Shown here one piece after another: positions 5,929-42,327 of a stretch of 64,000 nucleotides of DNA. The stretch's first letter is position 1. Every line of letters starts with the position of its first letter. The stretch spans positions 1,593 to 65,592 of the forward strand of contig JBFMAF010000038.1 of the NCBI GenBank assembly GCA_040755995.1, given 5' to 3'. The notes below the pieces were generated by a model, which made no database searches, had not been told where the DNA came from, and saw only the letters and a program-made list of their open reading frames with translations. The stretch comes from Acidobacteriota bacterium (GTDB lineage Bacteria; Acidobacteriota; CAIWXX01). The translations under genes and the position numbers were made by a program.

Positions 5929-5976
5929 GACCGTGGCGGTGAAGCCAATCCCGATCGTCAAAATGGAGGTCAAGCA

Positions 5977-8782: not shown

Positions 8783-8911
8783 GAGTGTGCCGGTGTGCAG
8801 GCAGCGGGGCTTCTTCGCGATGTGGGGCTCCGAACAGCAGATGGGTTGGATGAGCGCCCCGTGTGCCCGTCTGGTACAGCCGGGGACCTACCAACTCTGG
8901 GAGGAGATCCA

Positions 8912-24069: not shown

Positions 24070-24752
24070 CGACACACGCCATCATCGGAGGAATGGGGCC
24101 GCTCGCCTCGGCCGCGTTCCTACAAACCATCTACGAAAATCACGGCTGGGATCGCGAGCAGGAGCTGCCGGATATCCTGCTCCATTCGCTTTCCTCGGTC
24201 CCCGACCGCACTTCCACCTTGCTGTCCGGGCGGGACGATCTCCTCCTCGAACGCCTGCGGTGCGCGCTGCGGCAGGTCAACCTGCTTGATCCCGCATCGA
24301 TCGTGATCTGCTGCGTGACGTCTCATCATCTCCTCGACCGCCTGCCGGAGGAGATTCTGCCGAAGATCATCTCGCTCACCGACACGGCGCTGAAGACCGT
24401 TGCGGCGAAAGGCGAGCGCGCACTTCTCCTGGCCACCCGCGCCACCTATGAGCTGCGCGTCTTCGAACGGAGCCGGCACTACGCGGCGGCCGCGCCGCTG
24501 ATCGTGACACCCGAGCCGGCGGATCAGGAGCGCGTGCACGCGATGATCTATGACGATCTCAAGAAAGGCCGGCGGATCGCAGAAACAGCCGACGCACTTG
24601 CGGCCATGACCGCGCGGTACGGAGTCGGCGCGTTCATCGCCGGCTGCACCGAATTCCATCTGGTGACGCGTCATCTCCGGAAGAACCGCGTGGCGACGCC
24701 TTCCTTTATCGATCCGCTGATGACGATCGCTGACAAGGAGATGAGGGCATGA
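24066..24752 (+). CDS. Asp/Glu/hydantoin racemase family protein (aspartate racemase-like)
   Basis: 'IGGMGPLASAAF', 'CCVTSHH', 'AGCTEFHL' are the two catalytic-Cys motifs of the family. ATG in frame inside the long track ORF. Confidence 0.7.
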   Translation: MTTHAIIGGMGPLASAAFLQTIYENHGWDREQELPDILLHSLSSVPDRTSTLLSGRDDLLLERLRCALRQVNLLDPASIVICCVTSHHLLDRLPEEILPKIISLTDTALKTVAAKGERALLLATRATYELRVFERSRHYAAAAPLIVTPEPADQERVHAMIYDDLKKGRRIAETADALAAMTARYGVGAFIAGCTEFHLVTRHLRKNRVATPSFIDPLMTIADKEMRA

Positions 24753-26605
24753 GTCCGGCTTACTCGAACGCCACTCTGCGGGAGAGGATCGTCGAGCTCG
24801 TCGGGGACGTCTCGGGGCTCAGTCCCTCCTCGATCGATCCAAACGCCAACTTCTTCAGCCTCGGACTGAACTCCCTGATGTTCATGCAAATCCGGGACCG
24901 GATCGAGAGGGAGCTCGGCGTCGAGCTTGCGGTGAGCCAGTTCACTAACGATGTCTCAACGCTGGTGAAGCTGACCGGATACCTGGAGGAGCGGCTCGCA
25001 CTCGTTCCTTCCTCCGAATCTCAGCCGCCGCCAGTTCCGGATCGCTCCGATCAGACCGGACGGACTGGGGAGACTTCCCTCGACCTTTCATCACTCTCGG
25101 GGCTCGATACGCTCTTTCGCCGCCAGCTCGATGTACTGGAGCGGCAGAACGAGATCCTGCTCTCCGCCTTCCTCAACGGCGGCGGTGCGGCCCCCGCTCC
25201 GTCCCGCCCCGCGCCGGCTCCCCCCGGGAAGGCCTACGTTCCCTTCAAGGCGATCGTGACGTCGCGTTCCTCCGGCGTTGCCCAGGAGCATGTCGAAGCA
25301 CTCGCGCGGCTCCTGGGCGAGAAGTGCAAGTCGACGAAGGACCTTACCCAGAAGCATCGTCGCGTCTTCGGCAATAATCGCGCCATCGCCGGGTTCCGGC
25401 CAGATTGGAAGGAGATGGTCTATCCGCTCATCGCCGCCCGTGCGGACGGCTCGCGGATCTGGGATCCTGACGGGAACGAATACATCGACCTCACTATGGG
25501 CTTCGGCGTGGCGCTCTTCGGCCACAACCCCGCGTTCGTGATGGAGGCGATCCGGGCGGAGCTCGCAAACGGCATGCCACTCGGCCCGCTCTCGCCGCTG
25601 GCGGGGGAGGTTGCGGAGCTCATCGCCGAGCTTACCGGAGTCGAGCGCGTGGCCTTCTTCAACTCGGGTACCGAGGCCGTGATGGTGGCACTCAGGCTCG
25701 CCCGGACTGTGACTGGCCGCGCCAGGGTCGCGATCTTCTCGGGTTCCTTTCATGGAAGCTTCGACGGCATACTTGCGATCCGCGGCGCGGGCGGCAGGAC
25801 GCTGCCCATGCTGCCGGGCAGTCCCGCGGGCATCGTCGCCGATGTCATCGTTCTCGACTACGACGATCCGGCCTCGCTGGATTACGTGGCGGCGCACGGC
25901 GGGGAGCTGGCAGCGGTCCTCGTCGAACCGGTGCAGAGCCGTCATGTCGAGATCCAGCCGCGCGACTTCCTGCACCGGCTCAGGGAGCTGACCGCCGCGT
26001 CCGGAACCGCGCTGATCTTCGACGAGGTCATCACTGGCTTCCGGATCCATCCGGGCGGCGCGCAGGCCAGGTTCGACGTGCGCGCTGACATCGTAACCTA
26101 CGGCAAGATCATCGGCGGCGGGCTTCCGATTGGGATCGTGGCCGGTCGCGCCGAATTCATCGACGCGGTGGACGGAGGGATGTGGCAATACGGCGACGAA
26201 TCCTATCCCGCGAAGAAGAACACCTTCGTGTCTGGGACCTTCTGCCACCATCCCCTCGCGATGGCCGCCGCGCGCGCCGTGCTTCTTCACCTCAGGAGAG
26301 AGGGCCCGAAGCTCCAGGAGGACCTGAATCAGCGCACCGCGGCGTTCGTGACCCGCATGGCCGATCTGTTCAGGGACAGGAGCTGGCCGATCCGCATCGC
26401 CTGCTTCGGCTCGCTCTTCAGGATGGATCTCATGCCGGATCACGAGCTCCTCTACTACCACCTGCTTGACAAGGGCGTCTATGTCTGGGAGGGCCGCAAC
26501 TGCTTCCTCTCGACCGCGCATTCAGACGGCGACATCGAAGCGATCGAAACGGCGATCCGCGCATCCGCGGAGGCCATCGAGCGGGCCGGGCTCTTCCACC
26601 ACTGA
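24749..26605 (+). CDS. Fusion of an N-terminal acyl/peptidyl carrier protein domain to a class-III (glutamate-1-semialdehyde aminomutase-like) PLP aminotransferase
   Basis: N-terminus 'FFSLGLNSLMFMQIRDRIE' (PP-binding, Asn instead of the usual Asp before the Ser). Body 'FNSGTEAVMVALRLAR', 'FDEVITGFR', 'YGKIIGGGLPIG' (PLP-Lys region). ATG overlaps the racemase stop. Confidence 0.8.
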   Translation: MSPAYSNATLRERIVELVGDVSGLSPSSIDPNANFFSLGLNSLMFMQIRDRIERELGVELAVSQFTNDVSTLVKLTGYLEERLALVPSSESQPPPVPDRSDQTGRTGETSLDLSSLSGLDTLFRRQLDVLERQNEILLSAFLNGGGAAPAPSRPAPAPPGKAYVPFKAIVTSRSSGVAQEHVEALARLLGEKCKSTKDLTQKHRRVFGNNRAIAGFRPDWKEMVYPLIAARADGSRIWDPDGNEYIDLTMGFGVALFGHNPAFVMEAIRAELANGMPLGPLSPLAGEVAELIAELTGVERVAFFNSGTEAVMVALRLARTVTGRARVAIFSGSFHGSFDGILAIRGAGGRTLPMLPGSPAGIVADVIVLDYDDPASLDYVAAHGGELAAVLVEPVQSRHVEIQPRDFLHRLRELTAASGTALIFDEVITGFRIHPGGAQARFDVRADIVTYGKIIGGGLPIGIVAGRAEFIDAVDGGMWQYGDESYPAKKNTFVSGTFCHHPLAMAAARAVLLHLRREGPKLQEDLNQRTAAFVTRMADLFRDRSWPIRIACFGSLFRMDLMPDHELLYYHLLDKGVYVWEGRNCFLSTAHSDGDIEAIETAIRASAEAIERAGLFHH

Positions 26606-26799: not shown

Positions 26800-28446
26800 T
26801 TGAGAGCCCTCGGACCGATCTCGCGACTTTATCAATTCGTGGTGAAGGAGTCGCCGGAGTCTTGGAAACTCGTTCTCTACATGGCGCTCCTATCCGGAAT
26901 CGCCAATGGGGTGCTTCTGGGCGTCATCAATGCCGGAGCATTGGCGGCCTCCTCGGACTCGACGAGCTTGCGCCTGCTGCTGCTTTTCGCCATTGCAATG
27001 ACGGTCTTCGTGATGGCGAAGAAGATGGCTCTCGTCCGCTCCACAATCACCGTCGAGCGGCTGGTGAAGCGGCTTCGGATAAGGGTCTCTGACAAGATCC
27101 GGAAGTGCAAGTACGTCCTGTTGGAATCGCTCGGTCGCGGAGATCTCTATACGAAGATCTCGCAGGACACCAACTTCATCTCCCAGGCCTCCCACGTCAT
27201 CATCAACGCTGCTCAAGAGGCGGTCGTCGTGGTGTTCTGCCTGGTGTACATTGCCACACTATCGTTTGCGGCCTGCTTCGTCACAGTCATCTCCATCTTG
27301 CTCGCTGTCTACATCTATTACTACCATCAGAGGGCGCTCCTGGCTGACCTCAAGGAGTGGACGAGACGTGAAGCCGTCATGTTGGATTCGCTGGGGCACC
27401 TCGTCGACGGATTCAAAGAGGTCAAGGTTAACCGGAAGCGGAGCGACTCCTTGTTCGACTCGATCAAGTTCATCGCTGCGGATGCTGAGACCCTGAGGAG
27501 CAAGACCGGCATTCGGTTCGTGACCGATGTCATGTTCGCCCAGGTGTTCTTCTACCTCCTGATCGCCACGATCATCTTTCTTCTGCCTCGACTCGTGCCG
27601 ACTTACGCCGATGTGGTGATCAGGACGACTGCGGCGATCCTCTTCATCATCGGTCCGCTGGAGGCGGTGGTGAGCGCCGCCCCGATCCTTTCGCGAGCGA
27701 ACGTTGCCCTCGATAACCTGTACAAGCTCGAGGATCTTCTCGACACGGCCCAGGAAGATGGGGAACCGGTGATGGCGGAGGGCTTTTCGGGATTCCGGGA
27801 GATTCACGTCCGAAGCCTCGTTTTCAGCTATCTCGATCCGGCCGGCGTGCCCACGTTCACGATCGGGCCGATCACGTTTTCTCTCCCTCGCGGCCAGATG
27901 CTGTTCATTGTCGGAGGGAATGGGACGGGCAAGTCGACCTTTCTCAAGCTGCTCACCGGTCTCTATTATCCGAGGCAGGGGCTGATCAGAGTCGACGATC
28001 AGGAGATCCACCCGGGCAACCTGGCGGCCTATCGGGATCTCTTCTCGCCCATTTACTCGGACTTTCATCTCTTCGACCGTCTCTATGGATTGGAAGATAT
28101 CGAAGAGAGCAAGGTCACGGCGTTGCTCAGCGAGATGGAACTAGAGGGGAAGACGGAGTACCTCCATGGCAAGTTCTCGACGCAAAACCTTTCCTCCGGC
28201 CAGCGCCGTCGCCTCGCGCTCATCGTCTCGCTCCTCGAAGACAAAGACGTCTACGTCTTCGATGAGTGGGCCGCGGACCAGGATCAACGTTTCCGGAGGC
28301 ATTTTTACGAAGTCATCCTGCGGGATCTCAAATCGAGGGGCAAAACGGTCGTCGTCATCACCCACGATGATCGGTACTGGAGCACGGCCGATCGACTCAT
28401 CAAGATGGATTACGGAGAGATGGTCGAACAGGACGGCCTCGGCTAG
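26800..28446 (+). CDS. Fused permease-ATPase ABC exporter of the cyclic-peptide/siderophore-peptide transporter type (SyrD/PvdE-like, TIGR01194-like)
   Basis: N-terminal 6-TM domain. Walker A 'GGNGTGKST', signature 'LSSGQRRRL', Walker B 'VYVFDEWAADQD'. 548 aa. Confidence 0.8.
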   Translation: MRALGPISRLYQFVVKESPESWKLVLYMALLSGIANGVLLGVINAGALAASSDSTSLRLLLLFAIAMTVFVMAKKMALVRSTITVERLVKRLRIRVSDKIRKCKYVLLESLGRGDLYTKISQDTNFISQASHVIINAAQEAVVVVFCLVYIATLSFAACFVTVISILLAVYIYYYHQRALLADLKEWTRREAVMLDSLGHLVDGFKEVKVNRKRSDSLFDSIKFIAADAETLRSKTGIRFVTDVMFAQVFFYLLIATIIFLLPRLVPTYADVVIRTTAAILFIIGPLEAVVSAAPILSRANVALDNLYKLEDLLDTAQEDGEPVMAEGFSGFREIHVRSLVFSYLDPAGVPTFTIGPITFSLPRGQMLFIVGGNGTGKSTFLKLLTGLYYPRQGLIRVDDQEIHPGNLAAYRDLFSPIYSDFHLFDRLYGLEDIEESKVTALLSEMELEGKTEYLHGKFSTQNLSSGQRRRLALIVSLLEDKDVYVFDEWAADQDQRFRRHFYEVILRDLKSRGKTVVVITHDDRYWSTADRLIKMDYGEMVEQDGLG

Positions 28447-28527: not shown

Positions 28528-29370
28528 ATGAAGTGGAGAGATATTCGCGCCTGGATTGGCCATAGCCTTCCGTACCTGATCATGACAGCTCTCATCTTGC
28601 TCTTCGCCATCGTGTTCTTTGCGCCCCGGATATTCATCGTCGTTCACTCGGGCGAGGCCGGCGTCTTCTATCGTATGTTCCTCGGCGGCACCGTCACGGA
28701 CAGGGTGTATGGCGAGGGGCTCCACATCATATTCCCCTGGAATAAGATGTACGTGTACAACGTCCGGCTGCAGGAACGGGGCGATGAGCTCGATGTTCTG
28801 ACCAAGAACGGTCTCCGATTGCACCTCAAACTTTCAATCCGATTCTACCCGGAAAGAGACGTGATCGCAGTCCTCCATCAGAGGATCGGCCCTGACTACG
28901 TCGACAAGATCATCATCCCCAGCGTGGAATCGATCGTCCGGCAACGAGCGGGCGAGATGAGTGAGCAGGACGTCTACACGACACAGCACGCCTTCGTCCA
29001 GAGCCTCCTCGCGGAATCGTATGCGGATGTCGGCCAGAGCTATCTCAAGATACATGCCGTGATAGTCCGCGAGGTACGACTGCCGGAGCCGATCCAGAAG
29101 GCGATCGAGCAGAAGCTCGAACAGGAGCAGCTGGCGGCCGCGTATGTCTACAGGCTCGATCGTGAGTTGCAGGAAGCCAAGCGGAAAGCCATTGAAGCAG
29201 ACGGCTACAAGATGTACAACGATACCGTCAACTTGTCGTTGACGCCGGCGCTTCTCAAGTGGAAGGGCATCGAAGCCACCAAGGAGCTCGCTCAATCACC
29301 CAACACAAAGGTCATTGTCGTGGGGAATGGGGATCAAGGTTTGCCGGTTCTCCTCTCCGGCGAGAAGTAG
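28528..29370 (+). CDS. SPFH/band-7 (prohibitin/HflC-like) membrane protein
   Basis: N-terminal TM then 'VHSGEAGVFYRMFLGG...' SPFH core. Coiled-coil C-terminus. Confidence 0.8.
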   Translation: MKWRDIRAWIGHSLPYLIMTALILLFAIVFFAPRIFIVVHSGEAGVFYRMFLGGTVTDRVYGEGLHIIFPWNKMYVYNVRLQERGDELDVLTKNGLRLHLKLSIRFYPERDVIAVLHQRIGPDYVDKIIIPSVESIVRQRAGEMSEQDVYTTQHAFVQSLLAESYADVGQSYLKIHAVIVREVRLPEPIQKAIEQKLEQEQLAAAYVYRLDRELQEAKRKAIEADGYKMYNDTVNLSLTPALLKWKGIEATKELAQSPNTKVIVVGNGDQGLPVLLSGEK

Positions 29371-29634
29371 GCGCCGGGAGCGCGAACAAGCGCTTCGGTT
29401 TCTGGGGTCCTTCTTCGCCTCACTGCTCTTGTCGCCGGTCATCGGAGTCCCGCTTCTGCTTGCGGCCAGGGGCCCCCAATCCGAGCGTGAGCGGATCTCC
29501 CGGTCCACGGCCTCCCTTTGCCCCCGAAGTTGTTGCGCACCCGGCGTGAGCAACCGACTTGACTCTGTCCAGTCTCAGAGAATAGAGTCGAACTTGTCGG
29601 TGACTCATAATCCTCAGCCAATGGAGGTAACTCT

Positions 29635-30183
29635 ATGAGGAAGGAAGCAGCAAGACCTGTGGAGGGGGCCCCGGGGGAACCGAAACCCGAAACGCCAGCC
29701 GGGAGCAAGGCAACGGCATCGAGGGAAGCGCAGGCGCAACCGATCATCAACAAGTACATGATCGGATCGCTCGTAGCAGGGATCATCCCGGTCCCAATCG
29801 TGGACATCGCTGCCGTCACGGGCATCCAATTGAAGATGCTCCACTCGCTGTCGCGGCTCTACGAGCTCGAATTCAGGGAGAACGCCGGGAAGTTCGTCAT
29901 CGGATCTCTCGTTGGCGGCATCGGTTCGAGTGCGCTGGCGTGGGGGATGTTCGGCAGCCTGGTGAAGGCCATTCCCATCATCGGCCCTCTGGCGAGCCGC
30001 ATGACGATGCCCGTGCTGGCCGGCGCAAGCACCTACGCGCTCGGCAAGGTGTTCGTACAGCACTTCGAGATGGGAGGGACCTTCCTCAATTTCGACCCGT
30101 CGGCTGTTCGCGAACACTACGAGAAGCTCTTCAAGGAAGGGCAGCAGGTCGCCTCCGAGATGGCCAAGGAAGCCTCCGCCTAG
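29635..30183 (+). CDS. DUF697-like (YcjF-type core) membrane-associated protein
   Basis: 'IGSLVAGIIPVPIVDIAAVTGIQLKMLHSLSRLYELEF' and Gly-rich amphipathic segments. About 78% aa identity to the inverted paralog 36900-37487. Confidence 0.55.
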   Translation: MRKEAARPVEGAPGEPKPETPAGSKATASREAQAQPIINKYMIGSLVAGIIPVPIVDIAAVTGIQLKMLHSLSRLYELEFRENAGKFVIGSLVGGIGSSALAWGMFGSLVKAIPIIGPLASRMTMPVLAGASTYALGKVFVQHFEMGGTFLNFDPSAVREHYEKLFKEGQQVASEMAKEASA

Positions 30184-30261
30184 CTCACGGTTGACCCGCC
30201 GCGGGCCCATTGCCGGGGTCCGCCTTGACCCGAGGGGGTCGCAGTGACTAGGCGGTAAGAT

Positions 30262-30275
30262 CCTAATCGATTAGG
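30262..30275. promoter_or_regulatory. Perfect 14-bp palindrome CCTAATCGATTAGG. Identical core recurs at 36809-36822.
   Basis: Read from sequence. Sits about 80 nt after the DUF697-like gene and about 33 nt beyond the 3' end of the RND operon. Confidence 0.4.
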
Positions 30276-30306
30276 GCCATGAGGACTCCCGCCCTCAGCG
30301 ATCGGG

Positions 30307-31764
30307 TCATGATGACGACTCTTGAGTCTGTGCACTCGCGGGCTGCGGCGTCCATCCGCCACCAAGGGCCTTGTAAAGTTGGACCACTGACTGAAGCTGC
30401 GCCAGCTTCCCCTGCGCGAGGCCGATTTCCGCTGCGTAGAGCTGACGCTGGGCGTCGAGCACCTCCAGGTAGCTCGAAACGCCCCCTCGATAGCGCTTGT
30501 CAGTCAGGCGCAGATACGTCTGGCCGGCTTCAACCTGCCTCGTCTGCGCCTCGATCTGCGATTGCAGAGTCTGGTAGGTAACGAGCGAATCGGCCACTTC
30601 GGCAAGCGCGGTGAGCACCGTGCTGCGATAGCTCAGGGCCGCCTGCTCCATCTGCCACTTCGCAGCGCGCACGTTGTACCGCCCCGGCACGTCGAGCAAC
30701 GGCCAGCCGACGCCCGGTCCCCACGAGAAGATGCCGTCAGTCTTCCCACGGAACAGGTCCGCCAGAACCGTGCTCATCGTGCCCGCGAATCCTGTCAGCG
30801 AAAGCAGCGGGAACGGGAAGGTCGAAGCCTTGGCTACTCCGACCCGAGCCGTCGCGGCGATGAGATCCTGCTCGGCTTGCCTCACATCAGGACGCCTTTC
30901 GAGCAGCTGCGAAGGGAGCCCGGCAGGGATCACCGGCGGGAGCGGCATGCCCCGCGCCTCATCGGGAAGAGCAATTGCCTCGGGCGCACGCCCCCTCAAC
31001 CCGCTCAACTCGTTTTCCACCTCCGCGATCTGGCGGATGATTGCCGGTAACTGCGCCTGCACCGAAGCGAGCTGCCCAAGCGCCTGCGCCTCTTCGGTAC
31101 CGGAGGCGACTCCGCCACGACCGAGCTCGCGCACCAGATCCAACGACTTCTGGTCAGCCTGGATCGTTCGCTCGGTAATCACCTTCTGCTCGAGCAGAGA
31201 CCGCAGCTGGAAATAGTCGGATGCCACCTGCGCGACGAGCGCCGAAACCGCTGCGCGCCGCGCCTCCTCGGTCGATAGCAGGTCGGCAAGCGCCGCCTGT
31301 GACGATCGTCGAATGCGCCCGAACAGATCGATTTCCCAAGATACCGTCAACCCGCCGGTGTAGGTGCTTCCCGACCCGGCCTTGTAAGACACGAGTCGGC
31401 CGGTGCCCGGATCGAGGGCCAGCCCCTCGGACGCCGGCCGGGCCGACGTGTCGAGCACCCCTTCGACCACGGGCGCAATGCCGGCCAGGGCAGCGCCGTG
31501 GCGTGCACGCGCCTCTTCGACCCGTGCAACGGCAATCCGCAAGTCGAGGTTGTTTGAAAGCGTCTCCTTGATGAGGCCGGTCAGAACCGGATCCTGGTAG
31601 AGCTCCCACCAGCCCATGTCGGCGAGCGACTTCGGTTCCGTCTGCGGCACCTCGCTGCGATAAGCTTCGGGGGCGTTCGTTTCGGGCCGCCGGTACTTAG
31701 GCCCCACGGCACAGGCGGTTGAAAGAAGGAGGCACCCAATGACGGTTCTCGACGCCAGACTCAT
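30307..31764 (-). CDS. RND efflux outer-membrane factor lipoprotein (NodT/OprM family)
   Basis: Lipobox 'LLLSTAC', two-repeat OEP architecture, overlaps the upstream RND permease stop. Confidence 0.85.
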   Translation of the reverse strand: MSLASRTVIGCLLLSTACAVGPKYRRPETNAPEAYRSEVPQTEPKSLADMGWWELYQDPVLTGLIKETLSNNLDLRIAVARVEEARARHGAALAGIAPVVEGVLDTSARPASEGLALDPGTGRLVSYKAGSGSTYTGGLTVSWEIDLFGRIRRSSQAALADLLSTEEARRAAVSALVAQVASDYFQLRSLLEQKVITERTIQADQKSLDLVRELGRGGVASGTEEAQALGQLASVQAQLPAIIRQIAEVENELSGLRGRAPEAIALPDEARGMPLPPVIPAGLPSQLLERRPDVRQAEQDLIAATARVGVAKASTFPFPLLSLTGFAGTMSTVLADLFRGKTDGIFSWGPGVGWPLLDVPGRYNVRAAKWQMEQAALSYRSTVLTALAEVADSLVTYQTLQSQIEAQTRQVEAGQTYLRLTDKRYRGGVSSYLEVLDAQRQLYAAEIGLAQGKLAQLQSVVQLYKALGGGWTPQPASAQTQESSS

Positions 31765-34700
31765 CGGAGATCGCCTCCTTTCCCGACATATTCGGGCGGG
31801 GAGGCCGGCACGCGCTGCCGTCCCACCCGTTCAGAGATCTTCGTGATGGCAGCGAACAGCACTGGGACGATGAAGATGGCCAAGCCGGTGGCTGCGACCA
31901 TTCCGCCGAAGACGGACGTCCCGAGCGCGTGGCGGGCGCCCGCCCCGGCCCCGGCGGCAATCACGAGCGGCACGACCCCGAGGATGAACGCAAGCGAGGT
32001 CATGAGGATCGGGCGCAGCCGGACCTTCGCGGCTTCGGCCGCGGCCTCCGGGATCGACATCCCCTTCTCGCGATTCGCCTTCGCAAACTCGACAATCAGG
32101 ATCGCGTTCTTGGCCGAGAGGCCGACGAGCAGGATCAGCCCTATTTGCGCATAGATGTTGTTCTGGAGCCCGCGCAGCAACTGGGCCGACATGGCGCCGA
32201 AGACCCCGAGGGGCACGGCAAGAAGCACGGCGAACGGCACGGACCAGCTTTCGTACAGCGCCGCCAGGAAGAGGAAGACGAATACCAACGCGAGCCCGAA
32301 GACGACGGGCGCCTGCCCGGCCGACTCCTTCTCCTGCCGGCTCATCCCGGCCCACTCGTAACCATAGGTCGCAGGCAGGACTTCGGCTGCGAGCTGCTCC
32401 ATGGCCTTCATCGCATCCCCGGAGCTGAACCCGAGTGAGGGGCGGAAGCCGATCTGCGCGGTCCGGTACACGTTGTACCGCTCGATATTGGGCGGGCCGC
32501 TGGTCGGCTGCGGCCGCAGGAGCGTCGTCAGCGGCACCATGTTCCCGCGTTCACTACGTACGTAGAAGAAACCCAGCGCGCTGATGTCGCCGCGAAACTG
32601 CGGCTCGGCCTGCATGATCACCTTGTAGGTCCGCCCGAATCGGGTAAAGTCGTTGATCTGGTATCCGCCGAGGAGGCTCTGGAGCGACATGAAGATGTCG
32701 GTCACCTGGACCCCGAGCTTCTTGGCCTTTTCGCGGTCGACTTCGAGCTGATACGAGGGCGTCCGGTTGCTGAACACGCTGTAGACTTGCGACAGCTCCG
32801 GCCGCTTCCCGGCTTCGGCGACGAGCCGCCCAGCGACATTTTCCAGCTCTGCAGGCGAGCCGCCTCCGCGGTCCTGCACCATGAACTGAAATCCCGTACC
32901 GCTGAATCCAGGAATTGGAGGCGGCGGGAACACGATAGCCACGGCGTCAGAGATCGAGCTCGCGGCGGCCATGATTCGTTGGATGATGACTCCGACCTGT
33001 TCTTCGTCGGCCTTGCGGTCATCCCACGGTTTCATCGCAACGACAAACAGCCCCGTGTTGGGTTTGTTCGTCCCGCTGAGCATGTCGTATCCTATGATGT
33101 CCAGCGTTCCCTGGACGCCGGCGATCCCCGGCAGCAATTTGTCCAGCTGGTCGAAGGCGGCAATCGTTCGGTCCAGCGCAGCCGCATCGGGCAGGGTGAG
33201 ACAGCCGAACAGGTATCCCTGGTCCTCTTCCGGAACGAATCCCGTCGGCACAGCCTTCGTGATCGGCACGGTGGCGAATGAGAGGATGACGAGTGCGAGG
33301 AGCATTACGGCGGCGCGCCGGAGCGCGGCGCGCACGGCTCGGCCATAGCGTTCGGTGATTCGATCGAACCACGCGTTGAAGCCCCCGAAGAGCTTCGACC
33401 TGAGCCCCCGCCTGGAGGTGTCGTGGGGTCTCATCATGAGGGCGCAGAGGGCCGGGGTGAGCGAGAGGGCGATGGTCGCCGAGAGCGCCGTCGAGACGGC
33501 GACCGTGACCGCGAACTGCTTGTACAGCTGCCCCGCGATCCCTCCGAGGAACGCGACAGGGACGAAGACCGAGCACAGGACCAGGGCGATCGCGACGACC
33601 GGCCCGGAGACATCGTCCATCGCCTTCCTGGTGGCCTCGCGCGCGTTCAGCCCGTACTCGCGCATATGGTGCTCGACCGCCTCCACCACGACGATCGCAT
33701 CGTCGACGACGATGCCGATCGCGAGCACCATGGCCAGCAGGGTCAGTGTATTTATGGAAAAGCCGAGTAGTATGAAGGACGCAAATGTGCCGACGAGGGC
33801 CACCGGGACGGCCAGCATGGGGATCAGTGTCGCGCGCCACGTCTGCAGAAAGAGGAAGACGACGATGAACACAAGAAGCAGCGCCTCGAAGAAGGTCTTG
33901 ACGACTTCGGCCAGCGACGTTTTGACGAACACGGTGTTGTCGATGAACACGCTGTACTCGACGTCCGGGGGGAAGCGGGGCGCCAGGCGCTTGAGCTCCG
34001 CCCTCACCAGGTCCGACGTCTCGACGGCGCTCGCATCCGGCGTCAGGTTGACGGCGAGCACGGCCGCCGGCTTGCCGTTCATCCTCCCGATGAAGGAGTA
34101 GCCCTGCGCCGCGAGCTCCACGCGGGCGATGTCTCTGATCCGCACGAACGATCCATCCGGCTGCGACCGCACGATGATGTTCTGGAATTCCTCGGGTTCG
34201 ACCAATCGCCCCTGGACACGCAACGTGTACTGGAAGGCCTGCCCCTTCGGGGCCGGATACTGCCCAATCTGGCCCGCGGGGGCCTGCACGTTCTGCTCGG
34301 AGACCGCGTGGACGACGTCGGTCGGAGTGAGCCCCAGGCGGGCCATCTTGTCGGGGTGTAGCCAGATGCGCATCCCGAAGTCGGACCCGAATGCCTGAAC
34401 GTTGCCGACGCCCTTGACCCGCTTGATCACGTCGACGATGTTGATCGTGCCGTAGTTGTTGAGCCAGAGGTCGTCGTAGGTGCCCTTTGGGGAATAGAGC
34501 GAGATGTACATCAGCGTGTCAGGGGACTGTTTCGTGACGACGACACCGGCGCTCTTGACTTCGGAGGGCAGCGAGCCCTCGGCCTGGGACACGCGATTCT
34601 GGACGAGCACCGTCGCGATGTCGGGGTCCGTCTCCAAGGCGAACGTGACCTGCAGCGCGTACGAGCCGTCGCCTCCGCACTGCGAGTCCATGTATATCAT

Positions 34701-34922
34701 CCCTTCCACACCGTTCACCTGCTGCTCGATCGGTTGCGCCACGGCCTCCTCGACCACGTCCGGGCTAGCGCCGAGATAGATCGACGAGACGTTTATGACG
34801 GGCAACGTGATGTGGGGATACTGGGCCACAGGGAGATTGACGAGCGAGATCACGCCCGCAATGGTGATGATCAGAGCGACGACGATGGCGAACACCGGCC
34901 GGTCGATGAAGAACCTCGCCAT
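31761..34922 (-). CDS. RND efflux permease (AcrB/HAE1 family)
   Basis: 1053 aa, 12-TM/two large periplasmic loop architecture. Motifs such as 'FIDRPVFA', 'AIGIVVDDAIVVVE'. Confidence 0.9.
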   Translation of the reverse strand: MARFFIDRPVFAIVVALIITIAGVISLVNLPVAQYPHITLPVINVSSIYLGASPDVVEEAVAQPIEQQVNGVEGMIYMDSQCGGDGSYALQVTFALETDPDIATVLVQNRVSQAEGSLPSEVKSAGVVVTKQSPDTLMYISLYSPKGTYDDLWLNNYGTINIVDVIKRVKGVGNVQAFGSDFGMRIWLHPDKMARLGLTPTDVVHAVSEQNVQAPAGQIGQYPAPKGQAFQYTLRVQGRLVEPEEFQNIIVRSQPDGSFVRIRDIARVELAAQGYSFIGRMNGKPAAVLAVNLTPDASAVETSDLVRAELKRLAPRFPPDVEYSVFIDNTVFVKTSLAEVVKTFFEALLLVFIVVFLFLQTWRATLIPMLAVPVALVGTFASFILLGFSINTLTLLAMVLAIGIVVDDAIVVVEAVEHHMREYGLNAREATRKAMDDVSGPVVAIALVLCSVFVPVAFLGGIAGQLYKQFAVTVAVSTALSATIALSLTPALCALMMRPHDTSRRGLRSKLFGGFNAWFDRITERYGRAVRAALRRAAVMLLALVILSFATVPITKAVPTGFVPEEDQGYLFGCLTLPDAAALDRTIAAFDQLDKLLPGIAGVQGTLDIIGYDMLSGTNKPNTGLFVVAMKPWDDRKADEEQVGVIIQRIMAAASSISDAVAIVFPPPPIPGFSGTGFQFMVQDRGGGSPAELENVAGRLVAEAGKRPELSQVYSVFSNRTPSYQLEVDREKAKKLGVQVTDIFMSLQSLLGGYQINDFTRFGRTYKVIMQAEPQFRGDISALGFFYVRSERGNMVPLTTLLRPQPTSGPPNIERYNVYRTAQIGFRPSLGFSSGDAMKAMEQLAAEVLPATYGYEWAGMSRQEKESAGQAPVVFGLALVFVFLFLAALYESWSVPFAVLLAVPLGVFGAMSAQLLRGLQNNIYAQIGLILLVGLSAKNAILIVEFAKANREKGMSIPEAAAEAAKVRLRPILMTSLAFILGVVPLVIAAGAGAGARHALGTSVFGGMVAATGLAIFIVPVLFAAITKISERVGRQRVPASPPEYVGKGGDLR

Positions 34923-34931
34923 AGCGCGCTC

Positions 34932-36107
34932 CTATGTCCCCGCGAGATCCGACTCGGTCACGGTTGTTATCTTCAGCCTGGTGCCAGGTTGGGCCTTCAA
35001 CTGGCCCTCGACGACGACCCGCTCACCGGGCTTGAGCCCTTCCAGTACGACCCACAAGTTGTCGATGCGAGGCCCGACGCGGACCGGGCGCATCTCGGCA
35101 ACGTCGCCTTCTGCAACTACGGTCACGAAGTACTTGCCGAGCACCTGCGAGACGGCCTCTTGCGGGACGAGCAGAGCGTCAGGCAGAGTCGTGTACGTCA
35201 CGCGCACCCTGGCGAACATGCCGGGACGGAGCACGAGATCCGGGTTCGAGAACTGGGCCCTGAACATCAGCGTTCCCGTGTCCTCAGAGATCGCGCGATC
35301 GGCGAAATCGATCTTCCCCTCATACGGGAATGGCGATCCGTCGACGAGGAACAGATGCGTGCGTGCCCGGCTGGCCGCCTCGTCCAGCGCCTTCGTCCCC
35401 TCCCGCTTCCATCGCTCCACGATGTCCAGGTAGTCTGTTTCGCTGATTGCGAAGTAGACATAGGCCGGGTCGTTCTGCGAGACCTTCGCCAGCACAGTCT
35501 GGCCGGCGGTTGCCAACCCGCCTTCCTCGATCATCTGCAGGCCGACCTGCCCGTTGACCGGAGACCGAATCAAAGAGTCGTCCAGATTGAGCTCGGCCTG
35601 GCGCACCGATGCCTGCCGCGCCTCTACCTCGGCTTTCGCCTGTTCGAGTGTAGCGATGGCGTTGTCGAGCGTCTCCTTCGGAATGGCGTTCTCGGCCTGC
35701 AGAGGGCGATAGCGATCGACATCCTGCTGGGCCTTGATCAGTCCCGCCTGGGACTGCGCGAGCAGCGCCTTGGCGTCGTCGAGCGCCGCAGCGTAAGGGC
35801 GCGGATCGATTTCGAAGAGAACCTCGTTCATCTGCACGACGGCCCCCGGCTGGAACGCCCTGCGCTTCAGGATCCCGCTCACTTTGGAACGCAGCTCCAC
35901 TTCAAGATACGCGGCGACCTGGCCTACAAACTCGGCGTGGATCGGCGTCGTACGCTGGATGACGGCCATTGCCTTGACCTCCGGGGCCTGTGGTGGCGCC
36001 GCCGCCTTCTGGCAACTGATCCCGCTCACCGCGGCGGCGAGAGAAGCGGCCAGCACGCAGAATGTGGGTCGGCAGAGTTTACGTTCCAGGCTCTCGATGG
36101 ATTTCAT
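34932..36107 (-). CDS. RND efflux periplasmic adaptor (membrane fusion protein, HlyD/AcrA family)
   Basis: Lipoprotein-like N-terminus, coiled-coil hairpin, beta-barrel segments. Precedes the permease. Confidence 0.85.
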   Translation of the reverse strand: MKSIESLERKLCRPTFCVLAASLAAAVSGISCQKAAAPPQAPEVKAMAVIQRTTPIHAEFVGQVAAYLEVELRSKVSGILKRRAFQPGAVVQMNEVLFEIDPRPYAAALDDAKALLAQSQAGLIKAQQDVDRYRPLQAENAIPKETLDNAIATLEQAKAEVEARQASVRQAELNLDDSLIRSPVNGQVGLQMIEEGGLATAGQTVLAKVSQNDPAYVYFAISETDYLDIVERWKREGTKALDEAASRARTHLFLVDGSPFPYEGKIDFADRAISEDTGTLMFRAQFSNPDLVLRPGMFARVRVTYTTLPDALLVPQEAVSQVLGKYFVTVVAEGDVAEMRPVRVGPRIDNLWVVLEGLKPGERVVVEGQLKAQPGTRLKITTVTESDLAGT

Positions 36108-36784
36108 GGTGAACCCCTCCTCTTGAGGCTCTTGACCTCGGGCGGTTCATGCTCCAATATGTTCCTCGACTCCTTGGTCTCCGTGATGCGCGATGGCATG
36201 ATGGCGAATGTCACCGTGAAGGGGACTGTCTTTCGGCTCGACCCTTTCTGGTGCTTTTCGAAGAGTCTCATGCAGCGCTTCTGGAGATCGCGCTTGAATT
36301 CGACTGCCGCGGACGGCGGCAGATGCACCACGTAACTTCCGGCAAGGAAAGGGAAGGCGAATCCCTCGGATCTCAGGGTCTCTACTCCTTCACGATGTCG
36401 TTCGTGGATCCAGGCAAGCGTGTACTGCAGGTAGAAGTTCACCTCGTTTGTCGGTTCGGCAAGGGCCGCCTGCCATTCATTCTGATCGGTGGCATAGAGC
36501 TTCTCGGTGATTCCGTTGGGGCCCGGGCGCGTGCCCTGGAGCTTGACGAGATGAACGGCGAGGAGCGTCTGCAGGTGATGGTGGACAGCGGCATTCGAGA
36601 GGAAGAGGCTCTTGCCGAGCTCCCGCTGCGTCATGGCATCGCTGCCTCGGAGGATTTCGATTATCCGCACGCGGATGGGATGAAGGAGGGCCTGCCGTAG
36701 GGCCCTTCGTCGCCGGTCCTCGGCCGCCGCGCCCGTCCGATCGAGCGGCCGGACGTCAGCCGGGGTCAGAGTGATGTGACCCAT
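36104..36784 (-). CDS. ArsR/SmtB-type winged-helix transcriptional regulator (first gene of the RND operon)
   Basis: 'HPIRVRIIEILRGSDAMTQRELGKSLFLSNAAVHHHLQTL'. RBS GGAGG. Confidence 0.65.
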   Translation of the reverse strand: MGHITLTPADVRPLDRTGAAAEDRRRRALRQALLHPIRVRIIEILRGSDAMTQRELGKSLFLSNAAVHHHLQTLLAVHLVKLQGTRPGPNGITEKLYATDQNEWQAALAEPTNEVNFYLQYTLAWIHERHREGVETLRSEGFAFPFLAGSYVVHLPPSAAVEFKRDLQKRCMRLFEKHQKGSSRKTVPFTVTFAIMPSRITETKESRNILEHEPPEVKSLKRRGSP

Positions 36785-36808
36785 TGCATTCCTCCTCTGG
36801 CTCAGGGC

Positions 36809-36822
36809 GCTAATCGATTAGG
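36809..36822. promoter_or_regulatory. Second copy of the palindrome (GCTAATCGATTAGG) about 25 nt upstream of the ArsR start codon. Candidate operator.
   Basis: Identical 12-bp core CTAATCGATTAG to 30263-30274. Shared flanking GGTAAG on the same relative side. Confidence 0.45.
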
Positions 36823-36899
36823 CCCTTACCATGGAGTGGCGAGATTCATTTCGTGTCGAAGCGGGCCGAGGAAACCGGCCCGCGCACTGCGGCAATGAG

Positions 36900-37487
36900 C
36901 TAAGCCGTCGTGTCCTTGCTCATTTCGGAAGCGACCTGTTGTCCTTCCTTGAACATCTTCGCGTAGTGTTCGCGGACAGCAGCCGGGTCGAAATTGAGGA
37001 ACGTGCCTCCCGCCTCGAAGTGTTGAACGAACACCTTCCCGAGAGCATAGGTGCTGGCCGCGGCCATGACGGGCATCGTCAGCGAGCCAGCCAGGGGGCC
37101 CAGGATTGGAATGGCCTTCACGAGGCTGCCGAATGTCCCCCACGCGAGCGTGCTTGATCCGAAACCGCAGACGAGAGATCCGATGATGGACTTCCCGAGG
37201 TTGTCCTTGAATTCGAAACCGTAGAGGCGCGAAAGCGAATGGAGCAACTTTAGCTGAACGCCGGTGATTGCGGCCACATCGACGAGTGGGGCCGGGATGA
37301 TCCCAGCTACCAGTGACCCCACCATGAACTTGTTAACGATTCTCTGGGCCTGCAACTCCTTTGTTTCCATGGCGCTTGGGCCGGTTGGCGTCTCCTGCTT
37401 CTGTTCCTCCGGGGCTCCCTCCAGTGGTTTCGTGGCTTCTTTCCTCATAGAGCTACCTCCAGTGGTTGAGGACAGCGAGATCTTCAT
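36900..37487 (-). CDS. DUF697-like protein, inverted paralog of 29635-30183 (start possibly at internal MRKEATKPLEG)
   Basis: About 78% identity over 150 aa to the + strand copy. Confidence 0.55.
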   Translation of the reverse strand: MKISLSSTTGGSSMRKEATKPLEGAPEEQKQETPTGPSAMETKELQAQRIVNKFMVGSLVAGIIPAPLVDVAAITGVQLKLLHSLSRLYGFEFKDNLGKSIIGSLVCGFGSSTLAWGTFGSLVKAIPILGPLAGSLTMPVMAAASTYALGKVFVQHFEAGGTFLNFDPAAVREHYAKMFKEGQQVASEMSKDTTA

Positions 37488-37731
37488 AGTTTCGAGTCTA
37501 ATCCCGGTGCATAAGGACTGTCAATCGTTTTCGTGGCGTTCCGACGCCTGCTCACCGTCGATCCTGCCCGCGCTCGAAGGAAGGCGGGCCGGCGGCGAGG
37601 AGGAGCAGGAGCCCGATGATCGGCGTGAGGAAAATTGAGGCAAAGAAATAACCCCAAAATCCGAATCGCTTGTTCATGCCCAACACCGCAATGGCGATGC
37701 TCGCTATGAGATACATGAGATAGAACATGCT

Positions 37732-38982
37732 TCAATCCCCTTCGTCGGGCTGCGTTGAATCGCGAAGGACGGCCGATTGAGTCTGGCTCTCGGGCTCCCA
37801 GGGCACTGTCCGGGTCTCGGAGCCGGGCACGATCTCGAAGTGCCCGCGTTTCACCACCTTGACGAAGATCTCCCGCCCGACGGGATCGCCATACGCGGTA
37901 AAGGACATGTCTTCGCCGACCCCATGGAAAGGGCCCTCGTGGTAGAGAGTCGTGGCCACGACGAGCGGCATCGTGGAGTGAGTCCTCTCGACAGCCTGTG
38001 CATATACCGAAACGGCCTCGTACCCGAGAGACGCGGCCAGGTCCGGGTAGTGTCCGAACCTCGTTCGGAATCGCCTGCTGAATCCCATTTCGAGGTCGCT
38101 GCCGCCCGCCGTCGGATCGAAGATCGTCGGAACGTATGTCCCATCCGCCGCTGCTCCGGCGAGCCGCCAGAGGTTGGGCGAATCAATTTCGTGGCCACCC
38201 ATCAACGGCTGCGTGATTCCCATCTGGCGCGCCTGCTTGATGACCTTGGCGGCGAGGGGAAGGCTGTCCAGGACGAGCATGGCGTCCATGTCGGTGCTGC
38301 GCGCATCCGCCAGGAGCGGGCGGAAGTCCCGGCACTCGGAACCATAGGAGCTGACGAACGAGGCCTTGATGCCTTCAGGATCCCCGAAGTAGAGGAACAT
38401 GGCTGCGTAAAGGCCCTTGTAGCCGTCTCGATTGAACAGAATCCCCACCTTCTTGAACCCTGCACGGGCGGCGAACAGCGCGAGGCACCTGCAGGATTCC
38501 TGGGCAGGCGGGATCACTCTGAGCACGTGTTGGAACCTGTGTGATGTGAGGCTGGGATCGGAAGCAAAGGGAGCGATGAACAGAATTCCAAAGTACTCGT
38601 ATGTCACGGACGCAGAGATCGCGGTCTCAGAGGCTACGTGCCCGATGACGGCCATGAACCGGGGCGTCCTGCCGATCTTTTCGGCGACGTCTGCGGAGGT
38701 ATCGGGGTTCTCCTCATTGAAGTAGGTCGGGACCAGCCGGCGCCCGCCGAAAATGCCCTTCACATTGACATCGTCTACGGCGAATTGAACCCCATCGAGA
38801 AAGTGAGTTTTGTCGGCGAACGGCCAGACGATCGCAATGTCGATCGGTCCGTCAGAGGTCTCTGCCCAATCGACGCGCATTTCCGCATAGCGCTGGTACA
38901 GATTGTTCTGGCCGTAGGAGTAGTAGCCGATGGCGGCGGCCACTGCGGCAAGGATCGCGAGCATCGGGGCCGTCCTTTTCAT
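37732..38982 (-). CDS. Periplasmic substrate-binding protein, Leu/Ile/Val-binding (Peripla_BP_6) family, without adjacent permease genes
   Basis: Signal peptide. 'IAVIGHVASETAISASVTYEYFGILFIAPFASDPSLT'. Confidence 0.65.
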   Translation of the reverse strand: MKRTAPMLAILAAVAAAIGYYSYGQNNLYQRYAEMRVDWAETSDGPIDIAIVWPFADKTHFLDGVQFAVDDVNVKGIFGGRRLVPTYFNEENPDTSADVAEKIGRTPRFMAVIGHVASETAISASVTYEYFGILFIAPFASDPSLTSHRFQHVLRVIPPAQESCRCLALFAARAGFKKVGILFNRDGYKGLYAAMFLYFGDPEGIKASFVSSYGSECRDFRPLLADARSTDMDAMLVLDSLPLAAKVIKQARQMGITQPLMGGHEIDSPNLWRLAGAAADGTYVPTIFDPTAGGSDLEMGFSRRFRTRFGHYPDLAASLGYEAVSVYAQAVERTHSTMPLVVATTLYHEGPFHGVGEDMSFTAYGDPVGREIFVKVVKRGHFEIVPGSETRTVPWEPESQTQSAVLRDSTQPDEGD

Positions 38983-39211
38983 TCTCCGCGCTCCCGTCGC
39001 CTACTTCTCGCCGGAGAGGAGAACCGGCAAGGCGTAGCACGCGAGATCATTTCGATTCATTTCACCAGATGGCCACCCCGATGTCAAGAGGAACGGAGAT
39101 TGATTCAGAGCGTCATTCGGATCAAGGGCTCCTGAGGATTGTGCCATCTCGAGCTCGACCCGGGTGGTGTTCCCGTGATCGAGCCCGAGATCGGCTACCT
39201 GACGCCCCGTC

Positions 39212-40554: not shown

Positions 40555-40587
40555 GTGAGCAGGGTCACAGCTGCGAGGGTTGAGCCT
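40555..40587 (+). repeat. 33-bp direct repeat GTGAGCAGGGTCACAGCTGCGAGGGTTGAGCCT (copy 1)
   Basis: 32/33 identical to 42295-42327. Confidence 0.85.
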
Positions 40588-41100
40588 CAAATCCGGGAGT
40601 CATTCATGCGCTCCAGGAATCTCACGAACGGTCCAAAACACTGCGGGCATCGTTCAATGACGACTGGATACTGACCTACATGCAGTATCAACGGTGCGTC
40701 CACCGTGTCTTTGTAGCGGTCCCCATGCGCTCCGAAGAGGTCCTCGACGACGCGTTTGGGAGGTTGATTGTGATCCTGGTCTTCGACTGGGACGGTCCAT
40801 GTGATCTTGAGCTGGTTCGTCTTTAGCCGCGTCTTCAGCGACTCATGTGCTGCCAAAACGAGCGCTTCAAGATCGTGCTTGAAGCAGAACACGCGGAATC
40901 GGCTTCTGAGTCGTTCATGAGGTTGAACGCTTTTCGATGACAAGGCTTCGTCGAACAGCCGCAGCACTCCTTCTCTATAATTCCTCGGGTGTGACGTGCG
41001 GGAACACCTTGTCGCGAGGGTAGAGATCAGGCAGCGCCACCACGACGGAATCCGGATCGTTCCTTAGGATGTTAACCGCCTTCACCGGGATTTTCTTTAG
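40587..41100 (-). pseudogene. Reading-frame-discontinuous remnant downstream of the ATPase. Ends 'VVIERCPQCFGPFVRFLE'. Tentatively DUF4276-like, as known partners of AAA_21 ATPases.
   Basis: Coding continuity 'FPHVTPEEL|YREGVLRLFDEAL' needs a 1-nt frame change near 40975. Family assignment is from memory only. Confidence 0.3.
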
Positions 41101-41810
41101 GAGATCTCGCTTGTTGTCTCCCCGACTGCGCATCGGGAAGAATTCGATCGCAACGCCCTCGGCTCTCTTGCGCGCGAGGAGATCGCTGAGTACAGGGTGA
41201 TCAGCTCCGGGTTGGTCACAGTGCTCAGTGCCAGTTGGTTTGGGCGCTTGAGGGCGATCTCCTGCTTCGTGAGTTTCTTCGACTTCGCATCCTGGATGAG
41301 CCCTTTTCGTTCTCCGATGTTCAGGAAGAGGTAAGGATTCTGATCACGAGGCCGAGCAGTCTGCACGCGTTCGAACGAGACATGGGTCCGACCGACCGGT
41401 CCCATGAGCTCCCCCTGATATCTCAGCGGGTACTGCTGATGGAAGTCCATGTCGAGACTCCACCAGAATCGCTCTGCGCCGGGAACGTGAAAGATCTGCT
41501 GCCCGATGGACCCGGCAACGATCTCGGGAGGGATATCCTGGTAGATACTGTCGCGGAGGAATTTCAGAAATTCGAAGAGACTGGATTTCCCCGAGCCGTT
41601 TGCCCCCACGAGGATCTCGAGCGGTGTGAGCTCAGCCTGGAAATCCCGGAAGGGTCGATACCCCTTGATCTTCAGGGACTTGATAGTCGGCTTGCTGCTC
41701 ATGTCTGTGCTCCCTGGGCGATCATGCCTCAAAATGCCGACTGATCGGCTGACCTTCGCTATCGCCAGCTGCGTCGGAATCGAGGACCACTCGAACTTCC
41801 CTTTCGTCAA
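41097..41810 (-). pseudogene. P-loop ATPase of the AAA_21/ABC-like (AbiEii/OLD/RecF-like) kind. N-terminal half only. C-terminal half displaced into another frame.
   Basis: 'IKSLKIKGYRPFRDFQAELTPLEILVGANGSGKSSLFEFL'. No Walker B/D-loop in frame. An 'HPVL'-containing continuation appears in the -1 frame. Confidence 0.45.
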
Positions 41811-42294: not shown

Positions 42295-42327
42295 GTGAGC
42301 AGGGTCAGAGCTGCGAGGGTTGAGCCT
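42295..42327 (+). repeat. 33-bp direct repeat (copy 2) GTGAGCAGGGTCAGAGCTGCGAGGGTTGAGCCT
   Basis: See 40555-40587. Confidence 0.85.

Follow-up and report, generated by a model that had tools for sequence, protein, structure and literature searches.

An inverted duplication around an efflux operon in a conserved membrane gene cluster of an Acidobacteriota bacterium, with two copies of a predicted operator for an ArsR-type regulator

Autorepressors of the ArsR/SmtB type, among them SmtB, CzrA, CadC and NolR, have operators of the 12-2-12 type. AcrR, MexR and TtgR, whose genes stand beside tripartite efflux pumps of the resistance-nodulation-division (RND) class, belong to the TetR or MarR family and are usually divergently transcribed; the logic expected of them is an operator between promoter and genes, with derepression induced by a ligand. 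Here we describe a locus that shares traits with both kinds of system, located in a window of 64,000 nucleotides (the whole stretch of DNA that was analysed) from an Acidobacteriota metagenome-assembled genome (MAG). Within this window, an efflux operon headed by an ArsR-type regulator of 226 aa lies between two inverted copies of a DUF697 gene, DUF697-A on the left and DUF697-B on the right. We consider it probable that the arrangement arose through an inverted duplication, that the palindromes in its two arms are copies of the regulator's predicted operator, and that a 9.6-kb block was inverted at a later time.

The regulator resembles the ArsR/SmtB autorepressors in its winged helix (Foldseek target-normalised TM of 0.66-0.79 to 6j05, 1r1u, 4omy and 7p6f), in a recognition helix of their type (SNAAVHHHL), in its place at the head of the operon predicted to be under its control, and in the predicted inverted-repeat operator beside its own gene. 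It differs from them in a C-terminal extension of about 130 aa, in the absence of a conserved alpha3 CXC or alpha5 His/Asp/Glu metal site across 26 homologues, in the form of the predicted operator (CGATTA-N5-TAATCG / TAATCGATTA), and in its cargo, which consists of polyketide synthase (PKS) or efflux genes and not of metal resistance genes. Over its whole length, the best fold and profile matches are Kfla_6221 (4g6q), PH1932 (1uly/2cwe) and the heat-shock regulator Phr (2p4w), which likewise join an N-terminal winged helix-turn-helix (wHTH) to a C-terminal helical/strand extension; however, the window regulator is only 15-19% identical to 4g6q, 1uly and 2p4w, the full-length root-mean-square deviations are high, and no functional or operator similarity to these three proteins is known. 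With the AcrR, MexR and TtgR systems the locus shares a repressor gene adjacent to genes for a membrane fusion protein (MFP), an RND transporter and an outer-membrane factor (OMF), together with a predicted palindromic operator. Unlike them, the ArsR-type protein is encoded by the first gene of a predicted co-transcribed operon, and a second copy of the operator lies beyond the operon's 3' end.

An inverted duplication inside a conserved membrane gene cluster

An earlier note on this DNA had described an efflux operon bracketed by inverted DUF697 paralogues, each followed by a 14-bp palindrome, and a nucleotide alignment of the two flanks bears out the repeat itself: the region 29611-30283 matches 37472-36801 in inverted orientation over 678 nt at 76% identity (blastn, E 3e-134), well beyond the 14-mer. 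A repeat finder resolved the same similarity into an ungapped arm of 577 nt at 78% identity and a separate island of 30 nt at the palindrome (87%). The arms are collinear, running in the order small-gene part, promoter, DUF697 gene, GC-rich hairpin and palindrome with its operator island; the extent that the note had given to the repeat falls short, since part of a small membrane-protein gene, its C-terminal half, belongs to the arms as well. Conservation along the arms is uneven, with 88% identity in the 24-nt leader that includes the Shine-Dalgarno sequence and 72-75% in the GC hairpins, where the stem is preserved via a G-U change, while the spacers that separate the conserved parts have decayed to 40-47%, and the longest exact run common to the DUF697 arms today is 18 nt. 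The unique centre, 30284-36800, consists almost exactly of four genes (wHTH, MFP, RND and OMF), and the two DUF697 genes converge across these four, which run from 36784 to 30307 on the minus strand, as the note had stated. Each DUF697 copy comes with a promoter, a ribosome-binding site and a 3' hairpin of its own. Rfam and tRNA scans of the region gave no matches.

Both DUF697 proteins score above the gathering threshold of the Pfam family (PF05128, 27.7 bits). They are 73% identical (133/182, no gaps), somewhat less than the approximately 78% first estimated, and their coding DNA is 77% identical. The start of DUF697-B is almost certainly at 37448 and not at 37487, because the resulting length of 182 aa, the GGAGG spacing of the left copy and the length of NCBI protein P0001 all match this choice; the 195-aa open reading frame (ORF) is probably too long. 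The pair shows a synonymous divergence (dS) of 0.83, a dN/dS of 0.20 and differences at 49% of fourfold-degenerate sites. The two proteins are mutual nearest relatives among 5.8 billion proteins, where the next best match is 54-56% identical, and they are equidistant from outgroups; no DUF697 relative closer than 56% was found in the species-representative genome collection or in the 5.8 billion proteins. Divergence, dN/dS, mutual-nearest status and outgroup equidistance together indicate that the duplication is old and lineage-specific and that both DUF697 copies have been maintained by purifying selection.

DUF697 belongs to a recurrent set of five cluster genes, which also comprises a TIGR01194-like ABC exporter, an SPFH protein, a periplasmic binding protein (SBP) of the Peripla_BP_6 family and a two-helix membrane protein of about 55 aa. 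Approximately 26 of the 61 genomes with a DUF697 relative have at least three of the five within 10 kb, and the cluster spans Acidobacteriota, Desulfobacterota, Chlorobi, Bacteroidota, Verrucomicrobiota, Proteobacteria and others (e.g. loci L001, L007, L009, L015, L024, L029, L031, L036 and L060); no described function was found for it. Matches of the small membrane protein in tblastn adjoin the cluster in more than 30 loci, with E down to 1e-15. The usual order in relatives is DUF697-ABC-SPFH-SBP-small or SPFH-SBP-DUF697-small, and the SBP gene begins 1-20 nt past the SPFH stop codon. Our window holds the full set, with the ABC and SPFH genes on the plus strand and SBP, small gene and DUF697-B on the minus strand (Table 1). 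Sequence comparison thus shows that a conserved cluster of membrane genes in this window has undergone an inverted segmental duplication specific to the lineage, and that the order of the cluster is ABC exporter-SPFH-SBP-small-DUF697-operator-wHTH regulator.

The left arm retains a remnant of the small gene, without the first 18 codons and with 1 nt deleted near 29409/29410. Compared with the intact copy, this remnant has synonymous differences in the part encoding NKRFGFWG and conservative ones in the transmembrane part, so the left small gene probably remained functional over a large part of the period that followed the duplication. In the nearest genome, a Bryobacteraceae chromosome (OY764903.1; L001, 3900-14459), MFP-RND-OMF genes stand divergently beside DUF697-small-ABC-SPFH-SBP, with no regulator and no repeat, and the association of an RND pump with the five-gene cluster may be recurrent in Acidobacteriota.

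The regulator and its predicted operator

The DNA-binding domain of the regulator was recognised by Pfam HTH_24 (24.4 bits, cut-off 21.9), by HTH_5 just below its cut-off (21.1 against 22) and by a profile match in the PDB to ArsR 1y0u (E 2e-5); against NCBIfam HTH_metalloreg it scored 26.9 bits, under the cut-off of 55. An AlphaFold (AF2) model (pLDDT 82.7) shows an ArsR/SmtB-type winged helix followed by the C-terminal extension, and the fold of the DNA-binding domain matches ArsR, CzrA, SmtB and NolR. Among the 26 homologues no Cys is invariant or near-invariant and no other metal ligand is conserved, and the only Cys of the window regulator sits in the C-terminal extension. The label ArsR used in the earlier note therefore suits the fold but not the metal-sensing residues, none of which is conserved, and the regulator is not likely to be a metal sensor despite its ArsR fold.

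Homologues of the regulator, 39-52% identical, were located on contigs and through a metagenome scan. The regulator gene lies directly 3' of a DUF697 gene in nine independent loci (L062, L064, L066, L069, L071, L073, L074, L079 and L081), and L069 repeats the order SBP-small-...-DUF697-regulator. Type I PKS genes follow the regulator directly, often overlapping it, in seven loci (L062, L064, L066, L068, L070, L073 and L074), and after a few intervening genes in L069 and L082; the window is an exception, with MFP-RND-OMF downstream of the regulator instead of PKS genes. Thioesterase, phosphopantetheinyl transferase (PPTase) and DUF481 genes are often near these regulator-headed PKS operons (L062, L064, L066, L068, L070, L073, L074 and L082). 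Since homologues adjoin DUF697 genes in at least nine independent loci, gene order indicates that the regulator is native to the DUF697 cluster. With regulator and operator as native downstream neighbours of DUF697, the comparison also shows the right arm (SBP, small gene, DUF697-B and operator) plus regulator to be the ancestral block and the left arm to be a partial inverted copy beyond the OMF gene. The suggestion that an efflux module had been inserted or captured between duplicated DUF697 loci is, given this nativeness, not supported in the form proposed, and no transposase or recombinase was found among the Pfam-scanned ORFs of the window. Neither this regulator subfamily nor its predicted operator nor its synteny with DUF697 and PKS operons appears to have been described before; the searchable library yielded no literature in which the motif is reported or DUF697 is connected with clusters of this kind.

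In the window, the palindrome is perfect over 14 bp in the left arm. On the right, where the plus strand reads GCTAATCGATTAGG, 13 of 14 positions match the left copy; the two copies thus share a 12-nt core, and the identity claimed for them fails at one terminal base of the right copy. The palindromes start 78 nt (left) and 77 nt (right) after the DUF697 stop codons, closer than the 85-90 nt first given, whereas the placement of the right copy about 25 nt upstream of the regulator start agrees with its end 24 nt before the ATG, and GGTAAG does occur on the matching relative flank of both. Within 64 kb, the 14-mer with up to two mismatches occurs at these two sites only (0.03 expected), as does the full element with the outer half-site. 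No 10-mer match to the palindrome was found in a search of 61 DUF697 loci, and therefore the regulator homologues were examined instead.

In unrelated contigs from metagenomes, the motif recurs ahead of the genes for homologous regulators, in agreement with the earlier proposal that the palindrome is an operator. The family consensus is the dyad CGATTA-N5-TAATCG, with TAATCG as half-site, and the GGTAAG flank is, by comparison with it, a degenerate outer half-site at the canonical spacing of 5 nt. L064 carries TTGACGATAAggaacTAATCGATTATACT upstream of its regulator, with the palindrome between the -35 and -10 boxes, and L064, L073 and L085 have the identical 10-mer TAATCGATTA. Most other dyad-bearing loci read cTTGACGATTA-N5-TAATCG, overlapping a TTGACG -35 box, and several have a second dyad 25 nt further on. 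Half-sites are strongly enriched: the upstream regions, 10 kb in all, contain 42, where shuffled sequence gives 4.9 and the remainder of the loci has 0.24 per kb. Dyads with at most one mismatch number 22 against 0.024 expected. Across 1.25 Mb the dyad is confined to regulator-bearing loci, with 0 occurrences in L001-L061, regulator-free loci that add up to 0.96 Mb, and it is also present upstream of regulators without a DUF697 neighbour (L068, L070 and L077). Taken together, the 14-bp palindrome is very probably the core of the predicted operator of the 226-aa regulator. In L068 (279-295) and L070 (4409-4450), a DUF481 gene, for an outer-membrane barrel, is likewise preceded by extra CGATTA-N5-TAATCG dyads; they provide a precedent for a second operator within one locus, and the predicted regulon therefore exceeds the regulator's own operon.

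Selection appears to act on the left operator copy to this day, and the regulator probably continues to bind it; this is the simplest reading of a 30-nt island (30254-30283) that is 87% identical between arms, where the spacers on either side have fallen to 40-47%. At 45% identity, a match of 26/30 has a P of about 3e-6. Insulation or a roadblock between the convergent transcripts, or a decoy site, are our guesses at its role. A possible relic of the regulator start beyond the left operator (ATCGGGTCA compared with ATGGGTCA) was too weak to claim.

The adjacent MFP, RND and OMF genes together encode a tripartite RND efflux pump of the AcrAB-TolC type, and the junctions along wHTH-MFP-RND-OMF are -4, +9 and -4 nt; the 4-nt overlap of regulator and MFP gene makes it reasonable to call the 226-aa protein the regulator of the efflux operon. 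In the mechanism that we propose, a regulator dimer at the right operator would repress its own four-gene operon, either at a weak promoter close by or by blocking read-through transcription that starts at the DUF697-B promoter, and a non-metal ligand would release it. This ligand would plausibly be a product of neighbouring biosynthetic genes, because the family heads PKS operons in most other genomes. Upstream of the ABC gene, at 20986-26605, the window holds radical SAM, CbiA/4Fe-4S, Asp/Glu-racemase-like and ACP-aminotransferase fusion genes, which resemble a small biosynthetic cluster and might supply the exported product or the regulator ligand.

A probable later inversion and the rival explanations

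Beyond the DUF697 arms lies a second inverted repeat of 44 bp, with copies X on the left and X' on the right (Table 1) that agree at 43 of 44 positions and share an exact run of 33 nt; set against an expectation of 77%, the identity of the coding sequences, such agreement still has P = 1.4e-4. The SPFH C-terminus encoded in X (...GLPVLLSGEK and stop) is homologous to the ...GLP(V/L)IL... end in relatives, and X' is, from its sequence, a relic of the original SPFH-SBP junction, because in it an SPFH end directly precedes the SBP gene, as in relatives. Flipping 29385-38986 restores the canonical order ABC-SPFH-SBP-small-DUF697-operator-regulator, and we infer that the inversion of this 9.6-kb block came later than the DUF697 duplication and that the same event truncated the left small gene. 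A single event, in which a whole-arm duplication was followed by a deletion of 1311 bp, was considered and set aside, as it leaves the much better conservation of X unexplained. The earlier remark that large inverted repeats permit inversion is weak for the DUF697 arms: with no exact run longer than 18 nt, present-day recombination between them is unlikely. The inversion that appears to have occurred is marked by a different repeat, the younger one of 44 bp, which the earlier note does not mention. A promoter-like site just upstream of X' could drive SBP-small-DUF697-B in the present orientation.

A second reading frame through the 44-bp repeat encodes CRFSSPARSRRRER. On the right, at 39048-38979 on the minus strand, the CRFSSPARSRRRER frame is an upstream ORF of 23 codons whose stop overlaps the SBP ATG; on the left, in the ORF 29315-29638 on the plus strand, it continues into the transmembrane part of the small-gene remnant. 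This second frame may be due to chance, since long ORFs are common in all frames at 63% GC.

Four observations weigh against the account of duplication, predicted operator and later inversion. The small gene's first 18 codons, expected beyond X' after a clean inversion, are undetectable there, the alignment being no better than shuffles. Homologue dyads overlap TTGACG and the -10 region, but in the window neither arm has a sigma-70-like promoter on its operator copy, by scan or by eye, and the absence of recognisable hexamers on the operator makes the mode of repression in the window uncertain. The left operator has no gene to control, and the collections contain no close relative with which events could be dated or ordered.

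One competing explanation is a reversible invertible segment. The G segment of phage Mu is likewise a multi-kb block with short, near-identical inverted repeats, one of them at the end of an outside gene. The 9.6-kb block between the 44-bp repeats would on this explanation switch the genes that follow ABC-SPFH, through RecA acting on the 33-nt exact run or through an unlinked recombinase, so that ABC-SPFH precedes either DUF697-A alone or the series SBP-small-DUF697-B-regulator-RND pump. The identity of X and X' (43/44, against 77% in the older arms) fits such a switch, as do the SPFH stop inside X, which leaves SPFH intact in both orientations, the canonical order of relatives obtained on flipping, and the promoter-like site just outside X'. 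Yet, unlike in segments such as Mu G, the stop codon inside the repeat means that no alternative protein ends arise. Site-specific segments of the Hin/Gin or shufflon type have a recombinase gene in or beside them, but Pfam scans of 40 window ORFs, which did not take in every small ORF, revealed neither a recombinase nor an invertase. The one assembly shows only one orientation, homologous recombination works poorly on 44 bp, and one past inversion accounts for the same facts. We thus regard a reversible switch as improbable. A little less probable still is its extension to a switch that rewires one long membrane/export operon, with the two operators at the block's inner ends keeping the pump insulated or repressed either way. 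The present orientation and the 44-bp repeat could instead have been produced by assembly, the true genome being canonical: the source is a MAG contig, inverted repeats are able to mislead assemblers, and exact-sequence look-ups of DUF697-A, DUF697-B (with both starts) and the regulator gave no second contig for comparison. It is hard to credit such an artefact, however, as the 33-nt exact run is shorter than usual final k-mers, a mis-join would create neither a second copy of X nor a truncated small gene abutting it, and the older arms, at 77% identity, are not collapsible repeats.

Two further explanations concern the palindromes. Their position 77-78 nt after each DUF697 stop and the 5-bp hairpin possible in predicted folds would suit an element that acts in the DUF697 mRNA, either as terminator or as stability hairpin, and was copied with the gene, but the stem is short (5 bp), AU-rich and without a U tract, the scan calls no terminator, the fold of the left region is no better than shuffles (z = 0.09), and a separate conserved GC hairpin already lies 3' of each stop. 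The homologue dyads, moreover, keep an 11-bp spacing on promoter hexamers, including in the loci without a DUF697 neighbour (L068, L070 and L077), and we consider an RNA role highly unlikely. In the last explanation the efflux operon is a mobile or captured cassette between pre-existing DUF697 paralogues, like a composite element, and the palindromes are recombination or insertion sites. A unique centre of almost exactly four genes bracketed by inverted repeats is what such a cassette would look like, and because the regulator heads PKS and not RND genes in most other genomes, MFP-RND-OMF must have been recruited at some point. Nevertheless, the arms contain no transposase, integrase or insertion-sequence ends and encode only the small-protein remnant, DUF697 and regulatory sequence; regulator and operator are native DUF697 neighbours, and thus the right boundary is not an insertion junction; the motif is single upstream of regulator genes elsewhere; and the RND operon of the Bryobacteraceae genome L001 adjoins the cluster without any repeat. 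A cassette is therefore, in our judgement, very unlikely, and we retain the inverted duplication followed by a block inversion, with the palindromes as predicted operators.

Other features of the window and significance

The features discussed above are collected in Table 1. Elsewhere in the window, a direct repeat of 33 nt (40555-40587 and 42295-42327, 97% identical) surrounds a 1.7-kb stretch that holds an AAA_15/AAA_21 ATPase gene (41097-41810, minus strand), and may be the footprint of a small inserted element. Three paralogous genes with SBBP beta-propeller and TIG domains (4219-5928, 7094-8782 and 8795-10636) occupy 4113-10636, with 66-81% DNA identity and internal repeats, and a short tandem repeat (period about 63 nt, copies 88-100% identical) lies within an ORF at 58052-58183.

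Table 1. Positions of the genes, repeats and predicted regulatory sites of the locus, in window coordinates
Feature	Position	Strand	Remarks
ABC exporter (permease-ATPase fusion)	26800-28446	+	NCBIfam TIGR01194 cyclic peptide export ABC transporter, 326 bits, above cut-off
SPFH/Band 7 gene	28528-29370	+	Pfam Band_7, 86 bits; last 9 codons and stop inside X
X, left copy of 44-bp inverted repeat	29341-29384	+	Last 9 codons of SPFH, stop and 14 nt
Small membrane-protein remnant (pseudogene)	29385-29467	+	75% identical to 37674-37591, the C-terminal half of the 58-aa gene
Promoter of DUF697-A, sigma-70-like	29559-29588	+	TTGACT-18-TAGAGT; aligns with right-copy promoter
DUF697-A, 182 aa	29635-30183	+	Pfam PF05128, 56.1 bits
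GC-rich hairpin 3' of DUF697-A stop	30199-30223	+	Without U tract; fold and arm alignment
Left operator copy (predicted)	30253-30275		CGGTAA-gatcc-TAATCGATTA; perfect 14-bp palindrome 30262-30275, between convergent DUF697-A and OMF
OMF, outer-membrane factor	30307-31764	-	Pfam OEP, 162 bits; overlaps RND gene by 4 nt
RND inner-membrane transporter, AcrB-type	31761-34922	-	Pfam ACR_tran, 1134 bits
MFP, membrane fusion protein	34932-36107	-	Pfam HlyD_D23 (47.9 bits)/HlyD_3; start overlaps regulator stop by 4 nt
ArsR-type winged-helix regulator, 226 aa	36104-36784	-	C-terminal extension; first gene of efflux operon
Right operator copy (predicted)	36809-36831		Arm orientation TGGTAA-gggcc-TAATCGATTA; palindrome 36809-36822, ends 24 nt before regulator ATG
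GC-rich hairpin 3' of DUF697-B stop	36861-36885	-	Fold and arm alignment
DUF697-B, 182 aa	36900-37448	-	Pfam PF05128, 43.7 bits
Promoter of DUF697-B, sigma-70-like	37495-37524	-	TTGACA-18-TAGACT; promoter scan
Small membrane-protein gene, intact, 58 aa	37552-37728	-	NKRFGFWG loop between two hydrophobic stretches; tblastn
SBP, periplasmic binding protein (Peripla_BP_6)	37732-38982	-	Pfam, 95.8 bits
X', right copy of 44-bp inverted repeat	38987-39030	-	SPFH 3'-end relic (LPVLLSGEK and stop) and 18-nt native SPFH-SBP spacer; ends 4 nt before SBP ATG
Promoter-like site	39059-39087	-	TTGACA-17-TGAAAT, upstream of X'; by eye, not called by scan (-10 position 2 is G)

The regulator is of a well-known kind, an autoregulated winged-helix repressor with a predicted inverted-repeat operator, and what is puzzling about the locus is confined to the 44-bp repeat and the preserved left operator. 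While the duplication and the inversion as such are ordinary genome history, the retention of a second operator and of an SPFH relic makes this locus a clean example of nested rearrangements. Our analysis provides a concrete predicted operator (CGATTA-N5-TAATCG, core TAATCGATTA) for an uncharacterised ArsR-type branch that stands between DUF697 and type I PKS operons in several phyla, and the motif could serve for regulon finding and for switching on silent gene clusters. It also ties DUF697, a family without an assigned function, to a cluster of ABC, SPFH, SBP and small membrane-protein genes and to this regulator, narrowing its likely roles to the export or membrane handling of a lipid-like product.

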